NCBI GenBank assembly: GCA_028345065.1
Contig: JAOMCN010000001.1
Span: 21,605 to 85,604, forward strand
Reading direction: 5' to 3'
DNA length: 64,000 nucleotides
From: Rhodospirillales bacterium
GTDB taxonomy: Bacteria; Pseudomonadota; Alphaproteobacteria; Rhodospirillales; UBA2165
The translations under genes were made by a program, and so were the position numbers. The notes beneath the pieces were generated by a model. That model was not told the DNA's origin. It saw nothing but the letters and a program-made list of their open reading frames with translations, and did not search any database. Shown one piece after another: positions 25,751 through 60,716 of this stretch. Position 1 is the first letter of the stretch. Each line of letters begins with the position of its first letter.

Positions 25751-25846
25751 GGGAGGCTAGCTGCGGACAGGCAACTCGTGAACTCGGTCAGGTCCGGAAG
25801 GAAGCAGCTGTAGGGAGTTTTGTCTGGGTCGCGTGTCTGGCCTCCC
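25751..25846 (+). ncRNA. ffs: signal recognition particle RNA (4.5S, small bacterial type)
   Basis: It has the conserved domain IV sequence GGTCAGGTCCGGAAGGAAGCAGC with a GGAA tetraloop. The closing helix is GGGAGGC...GCCTCCC. It sits directly upstream of dnaX, as is usual in alphaproteobacteria. Confidence 0.9.
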
Positions 25847-25915
25847 ACTTCTAGTGAGCCGCGCTACCAATAGCGACCCGCTAACTCGCAGTCACGCCAT
25901 TTGGCCTAATAAATT

Positions 25916-47248: not shown

Positions 47249-47965
47249 ATGAATATGTCTGACGATTCGAGGTTTATGACCCAGGCACAAGCCGGCGTTG
47301 CGGATGTCGATGCAGGTTTGAGAGAATACATGCTTCGCGTATACAATTATATGGCTTCGGGTGTGGCACTGACAGGAATTGTTTCATCTCTTGTGTCGAA
47401 CAGTCCCCAACTCATGCAAGCTATTTTTGGGGGTCCGCTCAAGTGGGTATTTTTCCTTGGTATTCTCGGCTTGGGCTTCATGGCGCCCCGAATAATCATG
47501 TCGAAGAGCATTATAGCGGCTCAAAGTGCCTTCTGGGTTTATGCCGGAATGTTTGGCGCTCTGATGGCGCCGTATTTTATCGTTTACACCAGCACCAGCA
47601 TCGTGCGTGTCTTTTTCATTACGGCGGCGGCGTTCGCCGGCCTGAGCTGTTTTGGCTATGTAACGAAGAAAAGTTTAAGCGGAATGGGAGCCTTTATGGT
47701 GATGGGTACCTGGGGTCTGTTGATAGCCATTGTAGTTAATATATTCCTGCAATCGCCGGTGCTACAGATGACTTATTCAGCCATCGGAGTGCTCATTTTC
47801 TCCGGCCTGACTGCTTATTCGACTCAGCAAATCAAGCACATGTATTATGAAGGGGATGGTAGAGATACCACTACAAGGAAAGCTATAATGGGAGCTTTGG
47901 AGCTCTATGGCTCTTTTGTAATGATCTTTATTTTTCTACTTAATTTGCTTGGTAACCGTGAATAA
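47249..47965 (+). CDS. Bax inhibitor-1/YccA family membrane protein
   Basis: It has 7 TM helices, the N-terminal LREYMLRVYNYM motif and a BI-1 family C-terminus. Confidence 0.88.
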   Translation: MNMSDDSRFMTQAQAGVADVDAGLREYMLRVYNYMASGVALTGIVSSLVSNSPQLMQAIFGGPLKWVFFLGILGLGFMAPRIIMSKSIIAAQSAFWVYAGMFGALMAPYFIVYTSTSIVRVFFITAAAFAGLSCFGYVTKKSLSGMGAFMVMGTWGLLIAIVVNIFLQSPVLQMTYSAIGVLIFSGLTAYSTQQIKHMYYEGDGRDTTTRKAIMGALELYGSFVMIFIFLLNLLGNRE

Positions 47966-47987
47966 TTAATTATTTACAATTAGTCAT

Positions 47988-48020
47988 AAAAAGGGGAGCG
48001 GTTTAACCGCTCCCCTTTTT
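47988..48020. terminator. bidirectional intrinsic terminator
   Basis: AAAAA-GGGGAGCGG-TTTAA-CCGCTCCCC-TTTTT. The stem is nearly identical to the terminator at 9255..9282. Confidence 0.8.
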
Positions 48021-48040
48021 ATTGTTGTTCCCCAATAAAT

Positions 48041-48184
48041 TTATCTACAGAGAAGTTGCGTCGCTTCTTTGAGCTCTTTCCAGTTGTCTGGCAAAACCAG
48101 TTTTTTGGTCAACTGATGTCTATGTTGTAATTTATCCTTAAACAAAATGATTTCTTGTGTTGGTGACGGTAGGTGTGGAAACAT
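48041..48184 (-). CDS. 47-aa ORF resembling the C-terminal tail of the J-domain protein at 9304..9945 (possible decayed paralog)
   Basis: It is not in the ORF track because it is shorter than 60 aa. My hand translation is MFPHLPSPTQEIILFKDKLQHRHQLTKKLVLPDNWKELKEATQLLCR. It ends ...QLLCR versus ...QLLCK, and has LPD in place of HPD. Confidence 0.25.
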   Translation of the reverse strand: MFPHLPSPTQEIILFKDKLQHRHQLTKKLVLPDNWKELKEATQLLCR

Positions 48185-53661: not shown

Positions 53662-54975
53662 ATGGCACGAAAGATCAATTCTGCCGTCGTATTAGGTGGC
53701 GGTACTATGGGCGCTGGGATCGCCGCACTTTGCGCTCAGAAAGACAATCAAGTTCTTCTTTTGGACATAAACAAAGAAGCGGCGGAGCAGGCGTTGGATC
53801 GAATAATTAATGGAAGACCACCCAGTTTGGACGATCCGGAAAAGGCAAAAAACATAACTATTGGAACCTTCGATAATGATCTGGATAAAATAGTGAACTA
53901 CGACTGGATCTGTGAAGCTGTTATTGAAGATCTAAAAATCAAGCGCGAGTTGTTTGAAAAACTTGAACCGCTTCGACGGGATGGTTCTATTGTTTCTACG
54001 AATACGTCGGGCATCACATTAAGCGACATTACTGGAGGGATGCCAGATCGCCTACAGCAAGATGTCGCTGTTACTCATTTTTTTAACCCGGTAAAAGTTA
54101 TGCGCCTTCTTGAGTTGGTTCCCGGAAAACAAACCACGCCCGACGTAACTGATGCTTTAAGCGAGTTTTGCCGCAATGTTCTTGGTAAAGGTGTGGTTAA
54201 TGCAAAGGATACCGTCAACTTTATAGGCAACAGGATAGGTTGTTATTGGATACTTGCAGGCCTGCATTACGGAATAGAGGCACTAGAGGAAGGTTTTAGC
54301 GTTGAAGAAATAGATGCCATGATTTCTCAATCTATGGGTCTGCCCCCGACAGGCCTCTTTGGTTTGGTCGATTTAGTCGGTCTCGATGTAATGGATCTCG
54401 TAAGCAAAAATCTTTCAGCTAACCTCCCTTCAGGAGACCTAGGATTGAAAGTTGTAAATCTTCCGGGTTCAGTTCGTGCCATGATTGACCGTGGACAGAT
54501 CGGACGTAAAGCTGGCGGCGGCTTTTACAGGGTTGAAAAGTTGGATGACGGTTCCCGGAAGAGTGAGACGTTTGACTTAATTACCGGAAAATGGCGGGAA
54601 ACAATTAAAACAGACTCAGGTAGTACTCCAGTAACCCTTGACGCTATGCTCGAAGATGACAAACAAGGAAATCTTTTATGGCAAATTGTGGGCGGGACAC
54701 TCATTTATGCCGCAGATCTGATACCGGAAATTTCTGATGATATCGTCAATGTTGACCGAGCTATGAGATGGGGATACGCGTGGAGCGAAGGACCGTTCCA
54801 ACTGCTGGATAGATTGGGTCCGGGAAAGTTTTCAAGTAGAATTGTTTCCGAGAATGGAACAAACCCCAAAATGCTAACGGCGTTAAACAAGGCTGGTGCT
54901 GAGATGTTTTATTTGGAAGAAGAAGAAAAATTTTTTGCAATTGAAGGAACCTATAAACACATACCGGCTGACTAA
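53662..54975 (+). CDS. 3-hydroxyacyl-CoA dehydrogenase (NAD-binding plus C-terminal domains)
   Basis: It has the Rossmann motif GGGTMGAGIA and 3HCDH-type N- and C-terminal domains. Confidence 0.85.
   Translation: MARKINSAVVLGGGTMGAGIAALCAQKDNQVLLLDINKEAAEQALDRIINGRPPSLDDPEKAKNITIGTFDNDLDKIVNYDWICEAVIEDLKIKRELFEKLEPLRRDGSIVSTNTSGITLSDITGGMPDRLQQDVAVTHFFNPVKVMRLLELVPGKQTTPDVTDALSEFCRNVLGKGVVNAKDTVNFIGNRIGCYWILAGLHYGIEALEEGFSVEEIDAMISQSMGLPPTGLFGLVDLVGLDVMDLVSKNLSANLPSGDLGLKVVNLPGSVRAMIDRGQIGRKAGGGFYRVEKLDDGSRKSETFDLITGKWRETIKTDSGSTPVTLDAMLEDDKQGNLLWQIVGGTLIYAADLIPEISDDIVNVDRAMRWGYAWSEGPFQLLDRLGPGKFSSRIVSENGTNPKMLTALNKAGAEMFYLEEEEKFFAIEGTYKHIPAD
54745..54975 (+). repeat. direct repeat copy A, the 3' end of the intact dehydrogenase gene
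   Basis: This 231-nt segment is colinear, without indels, with 58950..59180. Translated identity is 51/76 aa, and the first ~41 nt have only 2 mismatches. Confidence 0.85.
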
Positions 54976-55135
54976 AATATTATAACAAAGAGTTAAATTG
55001 GAAGTTTTGAAAAGCAAACTAGAATTTTTAAATTTGTGTTTATTTTTGGGTGTATTTTGATGCTGAATTCACCACTTTTCTATTCAACGGGACGCTTAGC
55101 ACAAGGCAAGAAACTATCAGATAGAGCAAAGGCCA

Positions 55136-57511
55136 ATGAGTGAGCCATCTAGTTCCGTTCGGTTGCCGGTAATCGATTGGGCCATCGCCTTTCTAACCTT
55201 TAGTTTTGTTGTTGTAGGTATGGTTCATACGTTGCCCACTCTACCCGGTCTTGACCAGTGGGCGAGAGACTTTACAGGCAACCCGCTCCTCGCAATCCGC
55301 CGTTTCCCGTTCGAGTATCTTAATCCCTTTGTTTTTGCTCTGATGATGACCATAGTTGTTTTTAAGCATTCATTCTATCGTACGTTCAAAGATAGGGGAT
55401 CCCTCACAGCTGGGTTTAGTCTTGCTGCAGATGTTATCTTTATCGTTATGGTATACGCCGTTGCCTGGACGTATTTAATGGAGATTGAGGCTGTCTGTAT
55501 TATTGATCGTATCACAGGCGAGAGGGCAGAGTTAATTGCGAAAGCGTTACTGGCTGAAAAAGAATATGCTGAATCAATGGGTCTGCCTATACCAACAACT
55601 GTAGATGACCCAAGCTGCATAAATAACGCGGGTCTTTGGCTTTTTGCTATCGTAGGCTTTGGAGTACTCGTGTTCCTGGGTTATAACATTAAAGTTTGGG
55701 GCTTGCCCTTGGTCATGGTTTCATTATCTGTGGCCATTTACACAATCGCTACTGTGTTTATGTGGTACTTTCTTGGTCCCGATGATATCTCAAAATACTG
55801 GGTAACGAAACTTGGCGGAGAACCGCGCCAATTGACTGATGGGCTCGCCAACGTGCGCGATATCCTGACAAATGGATCGGCAGGGCTCTTGGGCCGTTTC
55901 ATCAGCATCACGATGGATATAATATTTCCTTATGTGATCCTTGGTTCATTGTTTGGGGCGTCTGCCGGCGGACGCTCTTTGATCAAGCTGGCGTTCTTGT
56001 TGACACGCAAGCTACGGGGCGGGCCAGCTCATGCAGCTATTGTTAGCTCTGCTATGTTTGGCACCATATCCGGAGGGCCTGTTGTTAACGTCCTTTCTAC
56101 CGGCGTCCTAACAATCCCGATGATAATAAAACGGGGGTTTGGTAGGGCCTTTGCCGGTGGTGTGGAAGCTGCAGCTTCCTCAGGAGGACAAATCATGCCG
56201 CCGGTTATGGGCGTCGCTGCTTTTGTGCTGGCTGCTATTACGGCTGTACCCTACAGTTCCGTTATAGTAGCGGCGGCCTTGCCTGCATTGGCATATTTTG
56301 GGGCTCTTTTTCTTACGGTCGTATTTCAAGCTCGCAAGCTCGAAATAGAAGCCTATGGTGAAATTACCGAAGACATGCTGTTGACGCTTGACGATAAAAT
56401 TAACCTATTTATGATTTTTGCTCCCCTCGCGCTTATTCTCTTGTTGCTCTTGACACCGAAAGAGGCGGTGACCTGCGGATGGATCGGTAATCTTTTTAAT
56501 GTTGAACAAGTATTTACGGGGAATGTCTGTACATCTGCCAAACTCCCTTGGTTGTTAGAGATTCTCGAAAATTCGGCCGGAGATGCAAGTTCGGCAGGCT
56601 GGTGGGCTGCTGTGCTTCTGATGGCGTTATTCTACCTCGATAAGGAAATGCGCGCCAAGCCGCGCAAGCTTTTTCATGCTCTCTGCAATGCCGGTGAGTT
56701 GCTCGCTACATTGTCTTTGATGCTGTTGGTCGTTGCCGTAATTGACTTTTCTCTAAATCTTACTGGTCTGGCTATGTATATTGCGGGTGACGTGGTCCAT
56801 TGGATGCGTGCAACAAGTGAGACCTTTAGTGTTGGAGGCGGAAGCTTGTTTATTTTCATCTCGTTGCTGGTGACAATGCTTTTGGCGATCCTTCTAGGTA
56901 TGGGCATGCCAACGGTTCCCGCCTATTTGAATGTCGCTCTGCTTATGGGGCCGCTGCTGATAGGGCTTGGCGTTGCTATGTTTACGGCTCATATGTTCGT
57001 TTTTTATTTTGCTGTTGCGTCTGCAATTACACCGCCGGTTGCAATTGCCGCTTTTGCAGCTTCTTCGATCTCGAAGACTGATCCCATGGTCACAGGAGTT
57101 GCGGCTGTGAAGGCGGGTGTTGTGATGTTTATTATTCCCTACATTTTTGCCTTTTATCCAGAGTTATTGCTCATTCAAGAAGCCCAACTAGACCCGAATT
57201 CCAAGACCGGCGCATTTTTGCCAGGTTACGATGGTGAGGTCCATTGGGGTCCTTTGGGTTGGTTATGTGCGCGTATCGCGCTGGCGCTGTATTTTATCGG
57301 GAGTTTGTTGGCGGGCTTTGACCGCATGAGAATTTCAGTTCCCGAGCAGTTTATACGGGGTTTGATTGCTTTACTGGTGATCTGGAAACTACCTGAGGTT
57401 TATTGGACAGGGATAGTATTAGGTGCAATAGTTCTTTTCTGGCATGGTAGAAAGTCAAAGAATATAAGGGCGGAAGAACCTATCCCCGATAAAGAACTAC
57501 AACAGATCTAA
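55136..57511 (+). CDS. TRAP transporter fused permease (TAXI-type, DctQ/DctM-like fusion)
   Basis: The 791-aa polytopic membrane protein is typical of TAXI-associated fused permeases and is adjacent to a TAXI receptor gene. Confidence 0.8.
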   Translation: MSEPSSSVRLPVIDWAIAFLTFSFVVVGMVHTLPTLPGLDQWARDFTGNPLLAIRRFPFEYLNPFVFALMMTIVVFKHSFYRTFKDRGSLTAGFSLAADVIFIVMVYAVAWTYLMEIEAVCIIDRITGERAELIAKALLAEKEYAESMGLPIPTTVDDPSCINNAGLWLFAIVGFGVLVFLGYNIKVWGLPLVMVSLSVAIYTIATVFMWYFLGPDDISKYWVTKLGGEPRQLTDGLANVRDILTNGSAGLLGRFISITMDIIFPYVILGSLFGASAGGRSLIKLAFLLTRKLRGGPAHAAIVSSAMFGTISGGPVVNVLSTGVLTIPMIIKRGFGRAFAGGVEAAASSGGQIMPPVMGVAAFVLAAITAVPYSSVIVAAALPALAYFGALFLTVVFQARKLEIEAYGEITEDMLLTLDDKINLFMIFAPLALILLLLLTPKEAVTCGWIGNLFNVEQVFTGNVCTSAKLPWLLEILENSAGDASSAGWWAAVLLMALFYLDKEMRAKPRKLFHALCNAGELLATLSLMLLVVAVIDFSLNLTGLAMYIAGDVVHWMRATSETFSVGGGSLFIFISLLVTMLLAILLGMGMPTVPAYLNVALLMGPLLIGLGVAMFTAHMFVFYFAVASAITPPVAIAAFAASSISKTDPMVTGVAAVKAGVVMFIIPYIFAFYPELLLIQEAQLDPNSKTGAFLPGYDGEVHWGPLGWLCARIALALYFIGSLLAGFDRMRISVPEQFIRGLIALLVIWKLPEVYWTGIVLGAIVLFWHGRKSKNIRAEEPIPDKELQQI

Positions 57512-57529
57512 TTGTATTACTCATATATG

Positions 57530-57565
57530 AAAAAAATGCCCCCGAGTTTACAGGGGGCATTTTTG
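57530..57565. terminator. bidirectional intrinsic terminator between the convergent TRAP genes
   Basis: AAAAAA-ATGCCCCC-GAGTTTACA-GGGGGCAT-TTTT. Confidence 0.8.
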
Positions 57566-57584
57566 TAGTTTGGTAACCCTAGTA

Positions 57585-58631
57585 TTATTGGGCGCAGGCT
57601 GGTAATTTATAACCCGCTTCCTTCCAGGCTGCCGCTGCACCTGCATGATATTTTAGTGTCGACTTTCCGCAGAAGCTGGATTTTTTCGGATCCATTTCCG
57701 CTAAACCAACAGATTTCATGAAAGCTGTACGTTTTTTCAGTCTATCCAATGTCGAGATATGTGCTGCAACTATTTTCTTTACCAAGTCAAAAGACATTTT
57801 TTTGTGAACGACGTCCGTGAAGGCAGTACCTAGACCACGCAGTTTATTATCTTCGGAAATAAGTGTTATTGACTTTTCATAGCCCATATCTTTCCGGTCG
57901 ACTATTATTGGAATATTGCCGGGTACGCCGAACATTTTTTTGGCCAAGGCGCTTTCCATTGCTGCCTTAGGTAAAGAAAATACGTTGATCTTGCCGGCTG
58001 CAGTCATAGTTGTTGGATAGGGGTGGGGCCAGGTCGAAGGCAATATAAAGCCATCGACCGATCCATCAACCAATGTGGTCATCAATTGACCCCAATTTTG
58101 CTGAACGCCTTTGTAATCTTTGCCGTCTTTTATGCCTGCTGCCAATATACCAACAGCTCGTGCATTATTTAGTGCGGCGCCGCGAGGAGGGCCGTTCCAA
58201 ATAGTTTTGCCTTTAAAATCTGCCCAGCTTTTCCAACCCTTATTGGCATAAGCAAAGCCATAAAAACCACCAGCGTTATAAGTCCATAAGGCGCGAAGGT
58301 TTGCCGCCAATTCAGCACCTTTTTCCTTCCCTATCTTACCATAAGGGCCGACGCCGCGAGAAAGGAGGAAAGGTAGGATAATGGGGGCAGAAGCAAGATC
58401 GGTTTTGCCTTGAGCGACATTGCGCACCGAGTTGGTGAGGGTTTGACCTTGCGCTACTTGGAGATTGGCGATTTTCTTTTCAGATAGAACATCGGCCATG
58501 TGTCCCATCACATTGCCAGGTACACCTGTTGGCCCAGCCGTTTCAGCTGACATGTTTATTTGTGCCTGGCTGTGTCCCGCTAAACCGACTACTAAAATAA
58601 AGGCTAAAATCAGCCATAGATGGTTTTTCAT
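57585..58631 (-). CDS. TAXI-family TRAP transporter solute receptor
   Basis: It has the signal peptide MKNHLWLILAFILVVGLAGHSQA and a TAXI-type periplasmic binding fold pattern. The strong RBS AAGGGAG lies upstream of ATG 58631. Confidence 0.8.
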   Translation of the reverse strand: MKNHLWLILAFILVVGLAGHSQAQINMSAETAGPTGVPGNVMGHMADVLSEKKIANLQVAQGQTLTNSVRNVAQGKTDLASAPIILPFLLSRGVGPYGKIGKEKGAELAANLRALWTYNAGGFYGFAYANKGWKSWADFKGKTIWNGPPRGAALNNARAVGILAAGIKDGKDYKGVQQNWGQLMTTLVDGSVDGFILPSTWPHPYPTTMTAAGKINVFSLPKAAMESALAKKMFGVPGNIPIIVDRKDMGYEKSITLISEDNKLRGLGTAFTDVVHKKMSFDLVKKIVAAHISTLDRLKKRTAFMKSVGLAEMDPKKSSFCGKSTLKYHAGAAAAWKEAGYKLPACAQ

Positions 58632-58758
58632 GATTACTCCCTTTTTCAAACTTTATACTAAAAACTTTTAGGTGACTTCTTTTCGGTCTTTAGATTTTAT
58701 AGCCTTATAATCTACGATCTGTTCATTGGAAACAGTTAGATCAAAACTATTAAACAAT

Positions 58759-58932
58759 TTAGTACATGAGTTCGTCCTCCTCACCACCACCAGGAAGAAC
58801 GAGCTCTCCTGACGTAGAGAGGGACTTAGCAATATCCATAACACTTGAACGGTTATCATCCACTGCTCTTTTGGGCACAGAACCATGTGCCCCCACATCC
58901 TTTTCCATAATATTTACTGCCCTTTCAGACAT
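58759..58932 (-). CDS. 57-aa hypothetical acidic-tailed peptide
   Basis: It is not in the track because it is shorter than 60 aa. My hand translation is MSERAVNIMEKDVGAHGSVPKRAVDDNRSSVMDIAKSLSTSGELVLPGGGEEDELMY. The RBS is weak. It is more protein-like than the overlapping track ORF 58668..58898. Confidence 0.25.
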   Translation of the reverse strand: MSERAVNIMEKDVGAHGSVPKRAVDDNRSSVMDIAKSLSTSGELVLPGGGEEDELMY

Positions 58933-58949
58933 ATTACCTAAGAGATGTG

Positions 58950-59180
58950 GTCAATGTTGATCGAGCCATGAGATGGGGATACGCGTGGAGTGAATGTCCG
59001 TTCCAACTACTGGATAAATTCGATCCGGGAATGTTTTTAAGTAGAATTGTTTCTGCGAATGGCGAAACCCCCAAAAAACTTAAAGCGCTACACAAGGCTG
59101 GTGCTGATAAGATTTATTTGGAAGAAGAAGGACAATTTTTTGCCCTTGGGGTAACATATCAAAAAACGCCGACCAGCTAA
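58950..59180 (+). pseudogene. orphan 3' fragment of a 3-hydroxyacyl-CoA dehydrogenase gene (direct repeat copy B)
   Basis: It encodes VNVDRAMRWGYAWSECPFQLLD..., homologous to the last 76 codons of 53662..54975. Homology stops abruptly near 58941 and no N-terminal part is present. Confidence 0.8.
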
Positions 59181-59217
59181 AAATGTATAAATAAGCTGCG
59201 AAACAGGGAGAGTTGAT

Positions 59218-60261
59218 ATGCAAAATAGAAATTTTAACCCTGTATTTATTTTTGCCAGTATTTTGACGTTGTGTTCATCACTTTTCTGGTCGACAGGAAG
59301 CTTAGCTGAACTGCGAGGAAAGGCAAAAGCGGCTGACGCTAACCAAGACGGATTGCTTCAGAAAGATGAAGCTAGGGGTCCAGCAGCAGCCAACTTCGAG
59401 GCAATAGATTGTGACAAAAGCGGCGCTCTAGACGGAAAAGAGCTTTACAACTTCTTTCGTGGTTCTGGTGAATGTGAGGGGGGCGCTGAAAAATCTGCTG
59501 GCAACATTATAATTCATGAGAAGGCATACCCGAGTGGCCCCGGTCCCTTCCCTGCGGTCATAACACTTCACACTAGCGGAGGCCTAAAAGGGTCGAAAAC
59601 ATTAATTCAAAACTTTAGGAGTGGGACCTGGGTAAACTCCGGCTATGCCGTATATGCGCCCAATTTTTTTGCAAAACATGGAATAACTACTTCTACTCGA
59701 ATGGATACTTTCGATAAATATCGTGAGGACATCGAGAAAGAACTAGTCGCAATAATCGCATTAATGAAGGCCGATCCCAAAGTAGATAGTAAAAATATTT
59801 TCGCAGTTGGCTTTTCGAACGGTGGTTTTTGGGCCAGTTTTATGGCGGGGAAGGCAAAGGTCAATGCTGCAGCATCACATTATGGAGTTTGGAAAGGGTG
59901 CTTTGGGTGGGATTGTGAAAACCCTTATCCAGTGGAATATTTTTCCTCAAAGAGTTCGCCGTTATTAGCCCTTCATGGCGATGGTGATAGCACGCAAAAA
60001 CCTAGGTATTTTGAGGCCGCATGGGACCAAATTGATGGCACGCCCAAGATTGAAAGACATATTTACGAAGGTGCCGGTCATGCTTGGGATTGTTTTCCAT
60101 ATTTTCCTAAGTCTCTAGTCGCCAAGAATCCAGGAAAATTTGGTCGTTTGCTAAAAAAATTAGAAGGAGTATGCGCTAACAAATTTGACGGCCCAAACAA
60201 AGCAGTAACAAAAGATGCTTTTAAAAGGACCCTGGCTTTCTTTAAGAAGCATGCAAAATAG
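59218..60261 (+). CDS. secreted dienelactone-hydrolase-family esterase with an N-terminal EF-hand pair
   Basis: It has a signal peptide and two canonical 12-residue EF loops, DANQDGLLQKDE and DCDKSGALDGKE. The DLH core is GFSNGG, HGDGDS, GAGHAW. Confidence 0.75.
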   Translation: MQNRNFNPVFIFASILTLCSSLFWSTGSLAELRGKAKAADANQDGLLQKDEARGPAAANFEAIDCDKSGALDGKELYNFFRGSGECEGGAEKSAGNIIIHEKAYPSGPGPFPAVITLHTSGGLKGSKTLIQNFRSGTWVNSGYAVYAPNFFAKHGITTSTRMDTFDKYREDIEKELVAIIALMKADPKVDSKNIFAVGFSNGGFWASFMAGKAKVNAAASHYGVWKGCFGWDCENPYPVEYFSSKSSPLLALHGDGDSTQKPRYFEAAWDQIDGTPKIERHIYEGAGHAWDCFPYFPKSLVAKNPGKFGRLLKKLEGVCANKFDGPNKAVTKDAFKRTLAFFKKHAK

Positions 60262-60354
60262 GGGACTTGGCAGGTTTTCGGAAAGCTTGTTTCAATTCGG
60301 ATTCGGGTGGCTATGGTTCCGATCAAGCTAGAATAGGGTTCTGATATTAAATAA

Positions 60355-60390
60355 CCCCCAAACATTGGAAGATTTTTCGGTGTTTGGGGG
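60355..60390. terminator. stem-loop between the esterase gene and the tRNA 3' end (probable bidirectional terminator)
   Basis: CCCCCAAACA-(16 nt)-TGTTTGGGGG forms a perfect 10-bp stem. On the minus strand it is followed by TTATTT. Confidence 0.55.
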
Positions 60391-60419: not shown

Positions 60420-60716
60420 TGGTGCCGCTTGGGTGATTTGAACACCCGACCCCCGCATTCATCACACTACAACTTTCGTTGCCACCCACATTATAGTGTG
60501 GGTGTTCGTGCGCTGGACTTTCCCTTCATCATACCAACAGAAGTTGGCTTAGATGCTCACCGTCAAGTCTCTACACCTCTCCCTCTTGGGGCCTTGGCTC
60601 GGGATTGCCATTTTAAAGGTTTCCCCGACTTTGATGAGTGTTCACCCAAAGGTTTCCCAATGGGGACGCAATTTATAATTACGAATGCGATGCTCTACCA
60701 GCTGAGCTAAAGCGGC
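60420..60716 (-). tRNA. tRNA-Thr(CGU), interrupted by a group I intron (exons 60716..60681 and 60459..60420; CCA encoded)
   Basis: The joined exons give a 76-nt cloverleaf: GCCGCUUUAGCUCAGCUGGUAGAGCAUCGCAUUCGUAAUGCGGGGGUCGGGUGUUCAAAUCACCCAAGCGGCACCA. It has a 7-bp acceptor stem with G1-C72 and C2-G71, A73, GCUC/GAGC D stem, UCGCA/UGCGG anticodon stem, loop UU-CGU-AA, and GGGUG/CACCC T stem with a UUCAAAU loop. Confidence 0.9.
60460..60680 (-). ncRNA. group I intron, IC3-like, 221 nt, no ORF
   Basis: It is inserted after U36. The P1 hairpin is CGU|AAUU-AUA-AAUUGCG with a U.G at the splice site. Core blocks match those recalled from the Azoarcus and Anabaena tRNA introns: GGGAAACC, CAAAGUCGGGGAAACC, AUGGCAAUCCCGAGCCAAG, AGGUGUAGAGACUUGACGG, CUAAG...UAUGAUGAAGG, AAGUCCAG. 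Covariation is seen in P3 (CUCAU/GUGAG) and P7 (GACUU/AAGUC). The terminal nucleotide is G (omega-G). Confidence 0.88.

Follow-up and report, generated by a model that had tools for sequence, protein, structure and literature searches.

The 64-kb stretch of DNA analyzed here, part of contig JAOMCN010000001.1 and hereafter called the window, comes from an uncultured marine Rhodospirillales-type alphaproteobacterium and very probably carries a functional tRNA-Thr(CGU) gene, split between U36 and A37 by a 221-nt IC3-like group I intron, as judged from sequence comparison. Given the E-value of the Rfam match, the covariation among homologues and the intronless orthologues, the identity of the insert as a group I intron is settled. 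Its boundaries are fixed as well, since the syntenic intronless orthologues are uninterrupted, and the 221 nt were therefore inserted precisely between U36 and A37 in a native gene. A preliminary description of this DNA had proposed a small IC3-type group I intron without an open reading frame (ORF) in the anticodon loop between these nucleotides, and this anatomy is borne out.

Identification of the split tRNA gene

The two exons (Table 1) join into a 76-nt tRNA that ARAGORN calls tRNA-Thr(cgt), with all four stems paired, A73 and CCA; the exon coordinates in the preliminary description were exact. The joined product has a canonical fold and a CGU anticodon, matches the uninterrupted orthologues, and carries G1-C72, C2-G71, G35, U36 and A73, which we take to be identity elements of tRNA-Thr. 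The insert starts directly after U36 and ends in G. The expected spliced junction, ...GCAUUCGU followed by AAUGCGGGGG, reads GCAUUCGU|AAUGCGG.

Contigs encoding homologues of the HemY-like protein of the window were fetched for locus comparison; the homologues come from sources named, for example, 'Rhodospirillales bacterium' or 'Rhodospirillaceae bacterium', which assigns the window to an uncultured marine alphaproteobacterium of this group. The upstream neighbors of the tRNA gene in the window are a gene for a TPR/glycosyltransferase-9 (GT9) protein, 72 nt away, and the HemY-like gene; an exact-protein look-up of the TPR/GT9 protein returned no match. In locus L138, whose HemY is 96% identical, the gene order is that of the window and an intron-bearing gene stands at the equivalent place, whereas the intron is absent from L140, L141 and L142 (HemY 61-72% identical), where hemC-hemD-hemY-TPR/GT9 is followed by an uninterrupted tRNA-Thr(CGU) at a spacing of 70-85 nt. 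The uninterrupted orthologues read ...CAUUCGUAAUGCG..., and the intronless tRNA of L141 (...GCATTCGTAATGCGGGGG...) is identical to the joined exons of the window at 74 of 76 positions. More distant lineages (HemY 38-50% identical) again have an intron-bearing gene near hemY; since L140-L142 are without it, intron presence is patchy. Both states also occur on a single contig, L129, with an intron-bearing (417-704) and an uninterrupted (2652-2727) tRNA-Thr(CGU) of identical exons 1.9 kb apart, and downstream copies of the 3' half in L030 and L104 show the uninterrupted junction TTCGT|AATGCG.

The Rfam model RF00028 (Intron_gpI) aligns to 60686..60505 across its entire length (1-253) with 45.4 bits, corresponding to an E-value of 2.1e-10 on the local stretch and 2.5e-8 on the 64-kb window. 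The match is thus significant, as the preliminary description expected of a group I intron. Features of this class are found throughout: a P1 in which the end of the 5' exon pairs with an internal guide and the splice site is marked by a U.G wobble; a terminal G before the 3' splice site (60460); and the core helices P3-P8, including the P3/P7 pseudoknot, backed by covariation. P2, P3, P8, P9a and P9b reappear in the minimum-free-energy fold, whose energy is -73.9 kcal/mol (z = -3.45 relative to shuffled sequences).

Homologues were sought in genomes, metagenomes and viral contigs. Scanning species-representative genomes (GTDB) with a pattern of the core plus P9 yielded 32 loci, which were typed by enumerating splice sites with U at -1 and G at the 3' end and running ARAGORN on the spliced products. 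The loci comprise Thr(CGU) 36/37 (7, in metagenome-assembled genomes, MAGs, labelled Rhodospirillaceae, Alphaproteobacteria or Magnetovibrio), Thr(GGU) 36/37 (6, in Hyphomicrobiales and Chloroflexia), Arg(UCU) 36/37 (12, in Vibrio, Enterovibrio, Celerinatantimonas, Shewanella and one Planctomycetota MAG), Arg(CCU) 36/37 (2, in Rhodospirillaceae and SAR116), Leu(UAA) 34/35 (4, in various hosts) and one match at a contig end without a call. A metagenome scan, with the pattern tied to ...TTCGT, yielded 101 stretches, 53 of which are intron-split tRNA-Thr(CGU) genes, nearly all from marine samples. None of the 4 matches in a scan of viral contigs was a tRNA-Thr(CGU). The homologous Thr(CGU) introns are 207-221 nt long and 72-92% identical to the window intron.

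An alignment of 40 distinct sequences, including the window, was used for covariation. In the P1-P9 structure 95.0% of cells are paired, against 34-46% when the partners are slid; 35 of the 67 pairs have changed on both sides (in 244 cells), and the covariation score is 0.277, against 0.05-0.09 for slid partners. None of 500 shuffles reached any of the observed measures. In P1, the exon-guide pairs C-G, G-C and U.G are invariant in all 40 sequences, and the inner pairs covary among UA, AU, CG and GC. All eight pairs of P2 have changes on both sides, P3 is paired in 99% of cells with two pairs showing compensatory change, and nine of the ten pairs of P8 covary. Compensatory changes occur in each of P9, P9a and P9b, which covary heavily, as do P2, P6a and P8.

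Intron structure and proposed splicing

Intron position n corresponds to window coordinate 60681-n, and the helices in Table 1 were placed by hand, guided by the Rfam alignment and by the SS_cons line that accompanies the seed alignment of Williams 2020 (bioRxiv 10.1101/2020.01.27.920355).

Table 1. Parts of the split tRNA-Thr(CGU) gene and its intron, in window coordinates.
Feature	Window coordinates	Strand	Intron or tRNA positions	Remarks
5' exon, 36 nt	60716..60681	-	tRNA 1-36	GCCGCTTTAGCTCAGCTGGTAGAGCATCGCATTCGT; ends in the anticodon, C34 G35 U36
Group I intron, IC3-like, 221 nt	60460..60680	-		RF00028 match, covariation, intronless orthologues
P1	60667..60683	-	exon C34-U36 + intron 1-4 with 8-14	CGU|AAUU-AUA-AAUUGCG; U36.G12 wobble at 5' splice site; guide GCG
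P2	60645..60664	-	17-24 / 29-36	hairpin with GAAA loop
P3	60633..60638 / 60556..60561	-	43-48 (CUCAUC) / 120-125 (GGUGAG)	covariation
P4-P5-P6/P6a domain	60575..60628	-	53-106	includes J4/5; Rfam alignment
P4		-	53-58 / 77-82	invariant
P5		-	62-63 / 72-73	minimal, 2 bp
P6		-	83-85 / 104-106	invariant
P6a		-	about 89-93 / 98-101	all 4 pairs covary
P7	60565..60571 / 60515..60520	-	110, 112-116 (G(A)GACUU) / 161-166 (AAGUCC)	A111 bulged
P8	60527..60555	-	126-129 / 151-154 + 133-138 / 143-148	11-nt-receptor-like internal loop UCUAAG/UAUGA
P9	60463..60512	-	169-173 / 214-218 (CGCAC/GUGUG)	encloses P9a, P9b
P9a		-	177-184 / 191-198	hairpin
P9b		-	199-203 / 208-212	hairpin with GAAA loop
Terminal G (omega G)	60460	-	221	abuts A37 of exon; G in 40/40 homologues
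3' exon, 40 nt	60459..60420	-	tRNA 37-76	AATGCGGGGGTCGGGTGTTCAAATCACCCAAGCGGCACCA; A73 and encoded CCA
Likely intrinsic terminator of tRNA gene	60346..60390	-		CCCCCAAAC...GUUUGGGGG hairpin, then UUAUUUAAU; read from sequence

All intron motifs listed in the preliminary description (i.e., P1, the GAAA-capped P2, the core blocks, the P8 receptor, AAGUCC, two 3' hairpins and the terminal G) are present, the core blocks being CAAAGUCGGGG, AUGGCAAUCCCGAGCCAAG and GGUGUAGAGACUUGACGG. The compensatory changes that it saw in P3 and P7 relative to Azoarcus agree with the Aol6.Ile2.5Ug row of the Williams seed alignment. The intron is compact, without P2.1 or P5abc, and has the core GGGAAACC, AAUCCCGAGCCAAG, GGUGUAGAGACU; its assignment to IC3 comes from this helix map and from core blocks common with introns of the Williams seed alignment that, according to Williams 2020, a database assigns to IC3. 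No intron-encoded endonuclease is found: the intron has only 221 nt and neither of the two ORFs over the locus, called spurious in the preliminary description, has a Pfam match.

A splicing pathway is proposed from what is known of the family. The precursor would be transcribed from the minus strand, and the guide GCG would pair with the anticodon CGU to form P1, so that the splice site lies at the U36.G wobble. P7 is the presumed guanosine-binding helix, a role taken from the homologous Rfam model and the SS_cons of Williams. Free guanosine bound there would attack after U36, and the terminal G would then take the P7 site; the AAU at the start of the 3' exon could take the place of the intron's AAU on the guide and so form a P10 of 2-3 bp. 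Ligation of the exons would yield the mature tRNA with no protein encoded by the intron. The hairpin and T-run at 60390..60346 likely form the terminator of the gene and overlap a site found in a terminator scan, and a similar hairpin occurs at the equivalent place in L138.

Elsewhere in the window, the bacterial small SRP RNA is found at 25752-25848 (+) with 61 bits, above its gathering score. The region 47932-48116 (-) has sub-threshold Rfam matches to Termite-leu (32.5 bits, E 0.003) and PrrB_RsmZ (25.5 bits), which are probably chance or an unclassified structured leader.

Alternative readings

Several points weigh against a functional, self-splicing gene. We infer self-splicing from conservation only. 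The score of 45.4 bits is below the Rfam gathering score of 50 in this release, so that the curated cut-off is narrowly missed and the intron is absent from a default Rfam scan; at gathering thresholds, such a scan of the window reports the SRP RNA as its only match. P5 is reduced to about 2 bp, and a sigma-70 scan upstream of the tRNA gene found no promoter. P4, P6 and P7 are unvarying in the 40 sequences and add no covariation evidence; given that this invariance is partly ascertainment, as both search patterns fixed AATCCCGAGCCAAG and GGTGTAGAGAC, these helices count neither way. The group uniting the main Thr(CGU) introns with those of Arg(CCU), which concerns the history of the intron, has a bootstrap of 54% on a crude distance tree. 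The view is also limited to 64 kb, and a second, uninterrupted tRNA-Thr(CGU) elsewhere in the genome is possible.

An unlikely, if still appreciable, alternative to direct insertion at the native locus is that the intron-bearing allele arrived laterally, as cargo of a site-specific integrative element targeting the anticodon loop of the resident tRNA-Thr gene, and that later recombination left a clean gene at the native position. It is favored by 25 of 60 related loci in which the intron-bearing gene is preceded, at a distance of about 190 nt or about 1.4 kb, by a similarly oriented 5' half of tRNA-Thr(CGU). These halves mostly end in the anticodon loop, at TTCGT A (L017, L021, L030, L031, L039, L047, L054, L067, L070, L081-L086, L089-L094, L099, L104, L111, L118, L129), and in L052 and L124 extend through TTCGTAATGCG, the whole anticodon arm. 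The 1.4-kb form, represented by the L017 family, encodes between the half and the gene a tyrosine integrase of 405 aa (Pfam Phage_integrase). When the upstream 5' and downstream 3' fragments of L030 and L104 are joined, they give an intronless tRNA-Thr(CGU) with perfect pairing, whereas joining the 5' fragment to the resident 3' exon instead leads to acceptor-stem mismatches. Because the flanking halves rebuild an intronless gene, the resident gene in these loci was split by an inserted segment with the intron-bearing copy.

The L017 integrase family is large and also shows the order 5' half, integrase gene, intact tRNA-Thr in loci (L143-L147) where the tRNA is Thr(UGU) or an intronless Thr(CGU), the latter also being carried next to a core-only site, ACTATTCGTAATAGT. 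These elements seem to bring their own tRNA-Thr and insert into a resident anticodon loop. Lateral arrival also fits the patchy presence of the intron relative to HemY similarity, and the variability among close relatives of the DNA just downstream of the tRNA in the window. L131 and L138 lack 54986-60313, which holds TAXI/TRAP transporter genes and a dienelactone-hydrolase-like gene, and L087 lacks 59193-60347. The transporter segment is flanked by the two copies of a direct repeat of about 360 nt (54739-55100 and 58944-59306, 72-80% identical). Yet the window has no tRNA half copies, integrase or second TTCGTAA junction near the gene, and its 72-nt spacer fits those of the intronless orthologues. 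Moreover, the tRNA carried by the element in L143 is intronless, so the element does not always include the intron.

A related proposal, which we regard as slightly less probable still, is that the intron, which has no homing endonuclease, owes its persistence to its splitting of the 7-8 bp integrase core (A)TTCGT|AA, so that the intron-bearing copy is immune and the elements spread the allele. If this were true, tyrosine integrases of the same marine alphaproteobacteria would use (A)TTCGT|AA to insert into and destroy the resident tRNA-Thr, and an element could carry the intron-bearing copy as a replacement tRNA without a second attachment site.

It is improbable that the intron is a decayed relic that has lost splicing, which would make the locus a tRNA pseudogene and leave the ACG codons to another tRNA-Thr. 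Bacterial tRNA-Thr(CGU) is often dispensable, as tRNA-Thr(UGU) is able to read ACG, and the conservation-based case for splicing, the Rfam score under the gathering cut-off and the minimal P5 all leave room for this reading. A relic, however, would gather unpaired changes and indels, and what is seen across the 40 sequences is overwhelmingly compensatory change in the helices, with invariant catalytic-core blocks, U.G pair, guide and terminal G, exons that keep a perfect cloverleaf, and a terminator after the gene.

The weakest reading, a tRNA-Ile(GAU) with a 219-nt intron at 33/34, is what ARAGORN returns with introns allowed for the window and homologous loci, and it is rejected, since its 78-nt product has a distorted anticodon and variable region, the Thr(CGU) junction instead has the preceding U and makes use of the terminal G, pairing of the guide GCG with CGU holds in 40/40 sequences, the orthologues are uninterrupted exactly across the Thr(CGU) junction, and boundary mis-calls of this sort by ARAGORN have been described (Williams 2020; PMC13011429).

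A functional tRNA-Thr(CGU) gene with an exact intron insertion remains the best explanation. The history would be insertion into a gene kept uninterrupted at the same chromosomal place in related lineages, by an intron lineage distinct from the Thr(GGU) introns and nearest to the tRNA-Arg(CCU) introns of the same bacterial group.

Relationship to known tRNA introns

Bacterial tRNA introns of this type are well surveyed. About 80,000 genomes were searched by Williams 2020, raising the four classical cases (Leu.3Ug, Arg.5Ug, fMet.2Ug, Ile2.5Ug) to 21, with a seed alignment that includes Rba53.Thr.5Ug (GGU, after U36), Mti5.Thr.3Ug and Pgr210.Thr.2Ug. The same source states that none of the seeds of Rfam is bacterial. 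A more recent study (mSystems 2026, PMC13011429) lists 333 intron-bearing tRNAs in 4,934 complete genomes, among them cases in Thr(GGU) at 36/37. The novelty claim of the preliminary description is therefore overstated, as the host amino acid and position are already catalogued: tRNA-Thr is a known host, and 36/37 is no new insertion site, being the classical one of Arg(CCU) and Ile(CAU) and used as well by the recovered Thr(GGU) and Arg(UCU) introns. Nor is the element rare, intron-split Thr(CGU) being widespread in public marine data. The guide does complement CGU, as had been noted, yet this co-adaptation is not special, since every class has it (e.g., GGU|...UUGCC in Thr(GGU)). The CGU isoacceptor is not named in the text of Williams 2020, whose Table 1 lies outside this comparison, or in the supplementary parts of PMC13011429 covered, and literature on group I introns in tRNA-Thr turned up mostly organelle papers; within this coverage, the CGU lineage and its marine distribution appear undescribed.

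Knowledge of this kind of element is unchanged by the window intron. What matters in practice is that standard annotation misses or mis-names the gene: ARAGORN at default settings reports no tRNA in the whole 64-kb window, its intron mode gives Ile(GAU), and the Rfam cut-off excludes the intron. For this reason, genomes of this marine clade will seem to be without tRNA-Thr(CGU). The loci also form a natural series, with one chromosomal site present with and without the intron and an Arg(CCU) relative one base away in target and guide, which makes them a convenient system for studying how endonuclease-free group I introns move between tRNA genes.

To obtain identities to the window intron, 48 introns were aligned with MAFFT. 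Of the other Thr(CGU) introns, 16 of 18 are 77-92% identical and the two most divergent ones (L043, L052) 72-75%, compared with 80% for the Arg(CCU) intron of L008 (a Rhodospirillaceae MAG), 65-68% for Thr(GGU) introns including the Williams seed Rba53.Thr.5Ug, and 57% for Azoarcus (Aol6.Ile2.5Ug). In neighbor-joining bootstraps (200 replicates), the Thr(GGU) clade is recovered in 100% and the main Thr(CGU) group in 59%. A shared origin of the Thr(CGU) and Thr(GGU) introns is rejected, the joint group having 0% bootstrap; as these are separate lineages, tRNA-Thr was colonized at least twice. That the Arg(CCU) introns are the nearest relatives of the Thr(CGU) introns is suggestive only. The anticodon loops UUCCUAA of Arg(CCU) and UUCGUAA of Thr(CGU) are one base apart, and the guides differ by the complementary base, GGG (in L008, P1 = CCU|AAGAAAUUGGG) against GCG. 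Given these differences, the most economical origin would be a jump from one of these two tRNAs to the other, after which the guide adapted.

Further introns with related cores were observed. The Thr(CGU) intron of L052 (Ga0315338_1016031) has the same position and lies outside the main group, with a longer P5 and different P2 and P8; it may be a further independent acquisition. Closely related Arg(UCU) 36/37 introns, whose P1 has an extra inserted hairpin, occur in L002, L005-L007, L009, L010, L012, L016, L019, L027 and L028, from Vibrio, Enterovibrio, Celerinatantimonas and Shewanella genomes. The same core is found in other hosts (L033, L034, L036, L049, L057, L060, L112, L133 and the viral contigs L135 and L136). 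In several of these loci it follows ...GGTTCGT, a T-arm-like context rather than an anticodon loop, and the hosts are possibly tmRNA or other RNA genes. In two IMG/VR contigs the core follows ...GACTTTTTTCGT.

Among described systems, the window intron has the features of the Thr.5Ug class, namely a tRNA-Thr host, insertion after the fifth anticodon-loop nucleotide (36/37, after U36), U at -1 and a 3' G, together with an IC3-type core. The P9 layout of Rba53.Thr.5Ug, a seed nearly identical to L022 (a Rhizobiales MAG), is also that of the window intron: ...GUCCAG CGCAC GAA, a hairpin, GGCACGAAAGUGCC (the GAAA hairpin), G GUGUG AUG. The seed differs in its GGU anticodon and its guide GCC (CGU and GCG in the window) and is about 65% identical. 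The Thr(GGU) introns are also longer (216-258 nt) and form their fully supported clade without ever grouping with the CGU introns.

The Arg(CCU) introns of the Agrobacterium type (Arg.5Ug; L008 and, among SAR116 MAGs, L032) have the same insertion position. The intron of L008, the nearest non-Thr relative, has P8, P9, P9a and P9b sequences common with the window intron, and differs in host tRNA and in its guide. Identity is much lower (60-61%) for Rur1 and Bbo3 of the Williams seed alignment.

The Azoarcus tRNA-Ile(CAU) intron, which serves as structural model of small IC3 introns, is similar in its 36/37 position, lack of an ORF, P1-P9 layout, P2 GAAA loop, P8 receptor motif and P9 GAAA loop. 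It differs from the window intron by compensatory changes in P3 and P7; in the window intron, P5 is much shorter and a P9a hairpin is added. By analogy with the Azoarcus crystal structures, the GAAA loops of P2 and P9b in the window intron would dock onto the P8 receptor and P5. Statements on the tetraloops or P10 were not found in the text of the Azoarcus paper PMC13168695.

The tRNA-Leu(UAA) intron of cyanobacteria and plastids (Leu.3Ug) has nearly identical core blocks, AUGGCAAUCC(C/U)GAGCCAAG and GGUG(U/C)AGAGACU, and differs in its 34/35 insertion inside the anticodon and in guide and host. Finally, the 'divergent' introns in tRNA-Thr(GGU) of Patescibacteria, as described in PMC13011429, have the host amino acid and the 36/37 position in common with the window intron. 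Unlike the window intron, which is IC3-like and detected by RF00028, they are placed by their authors with the IA subgroup and reported to escape RF00028.

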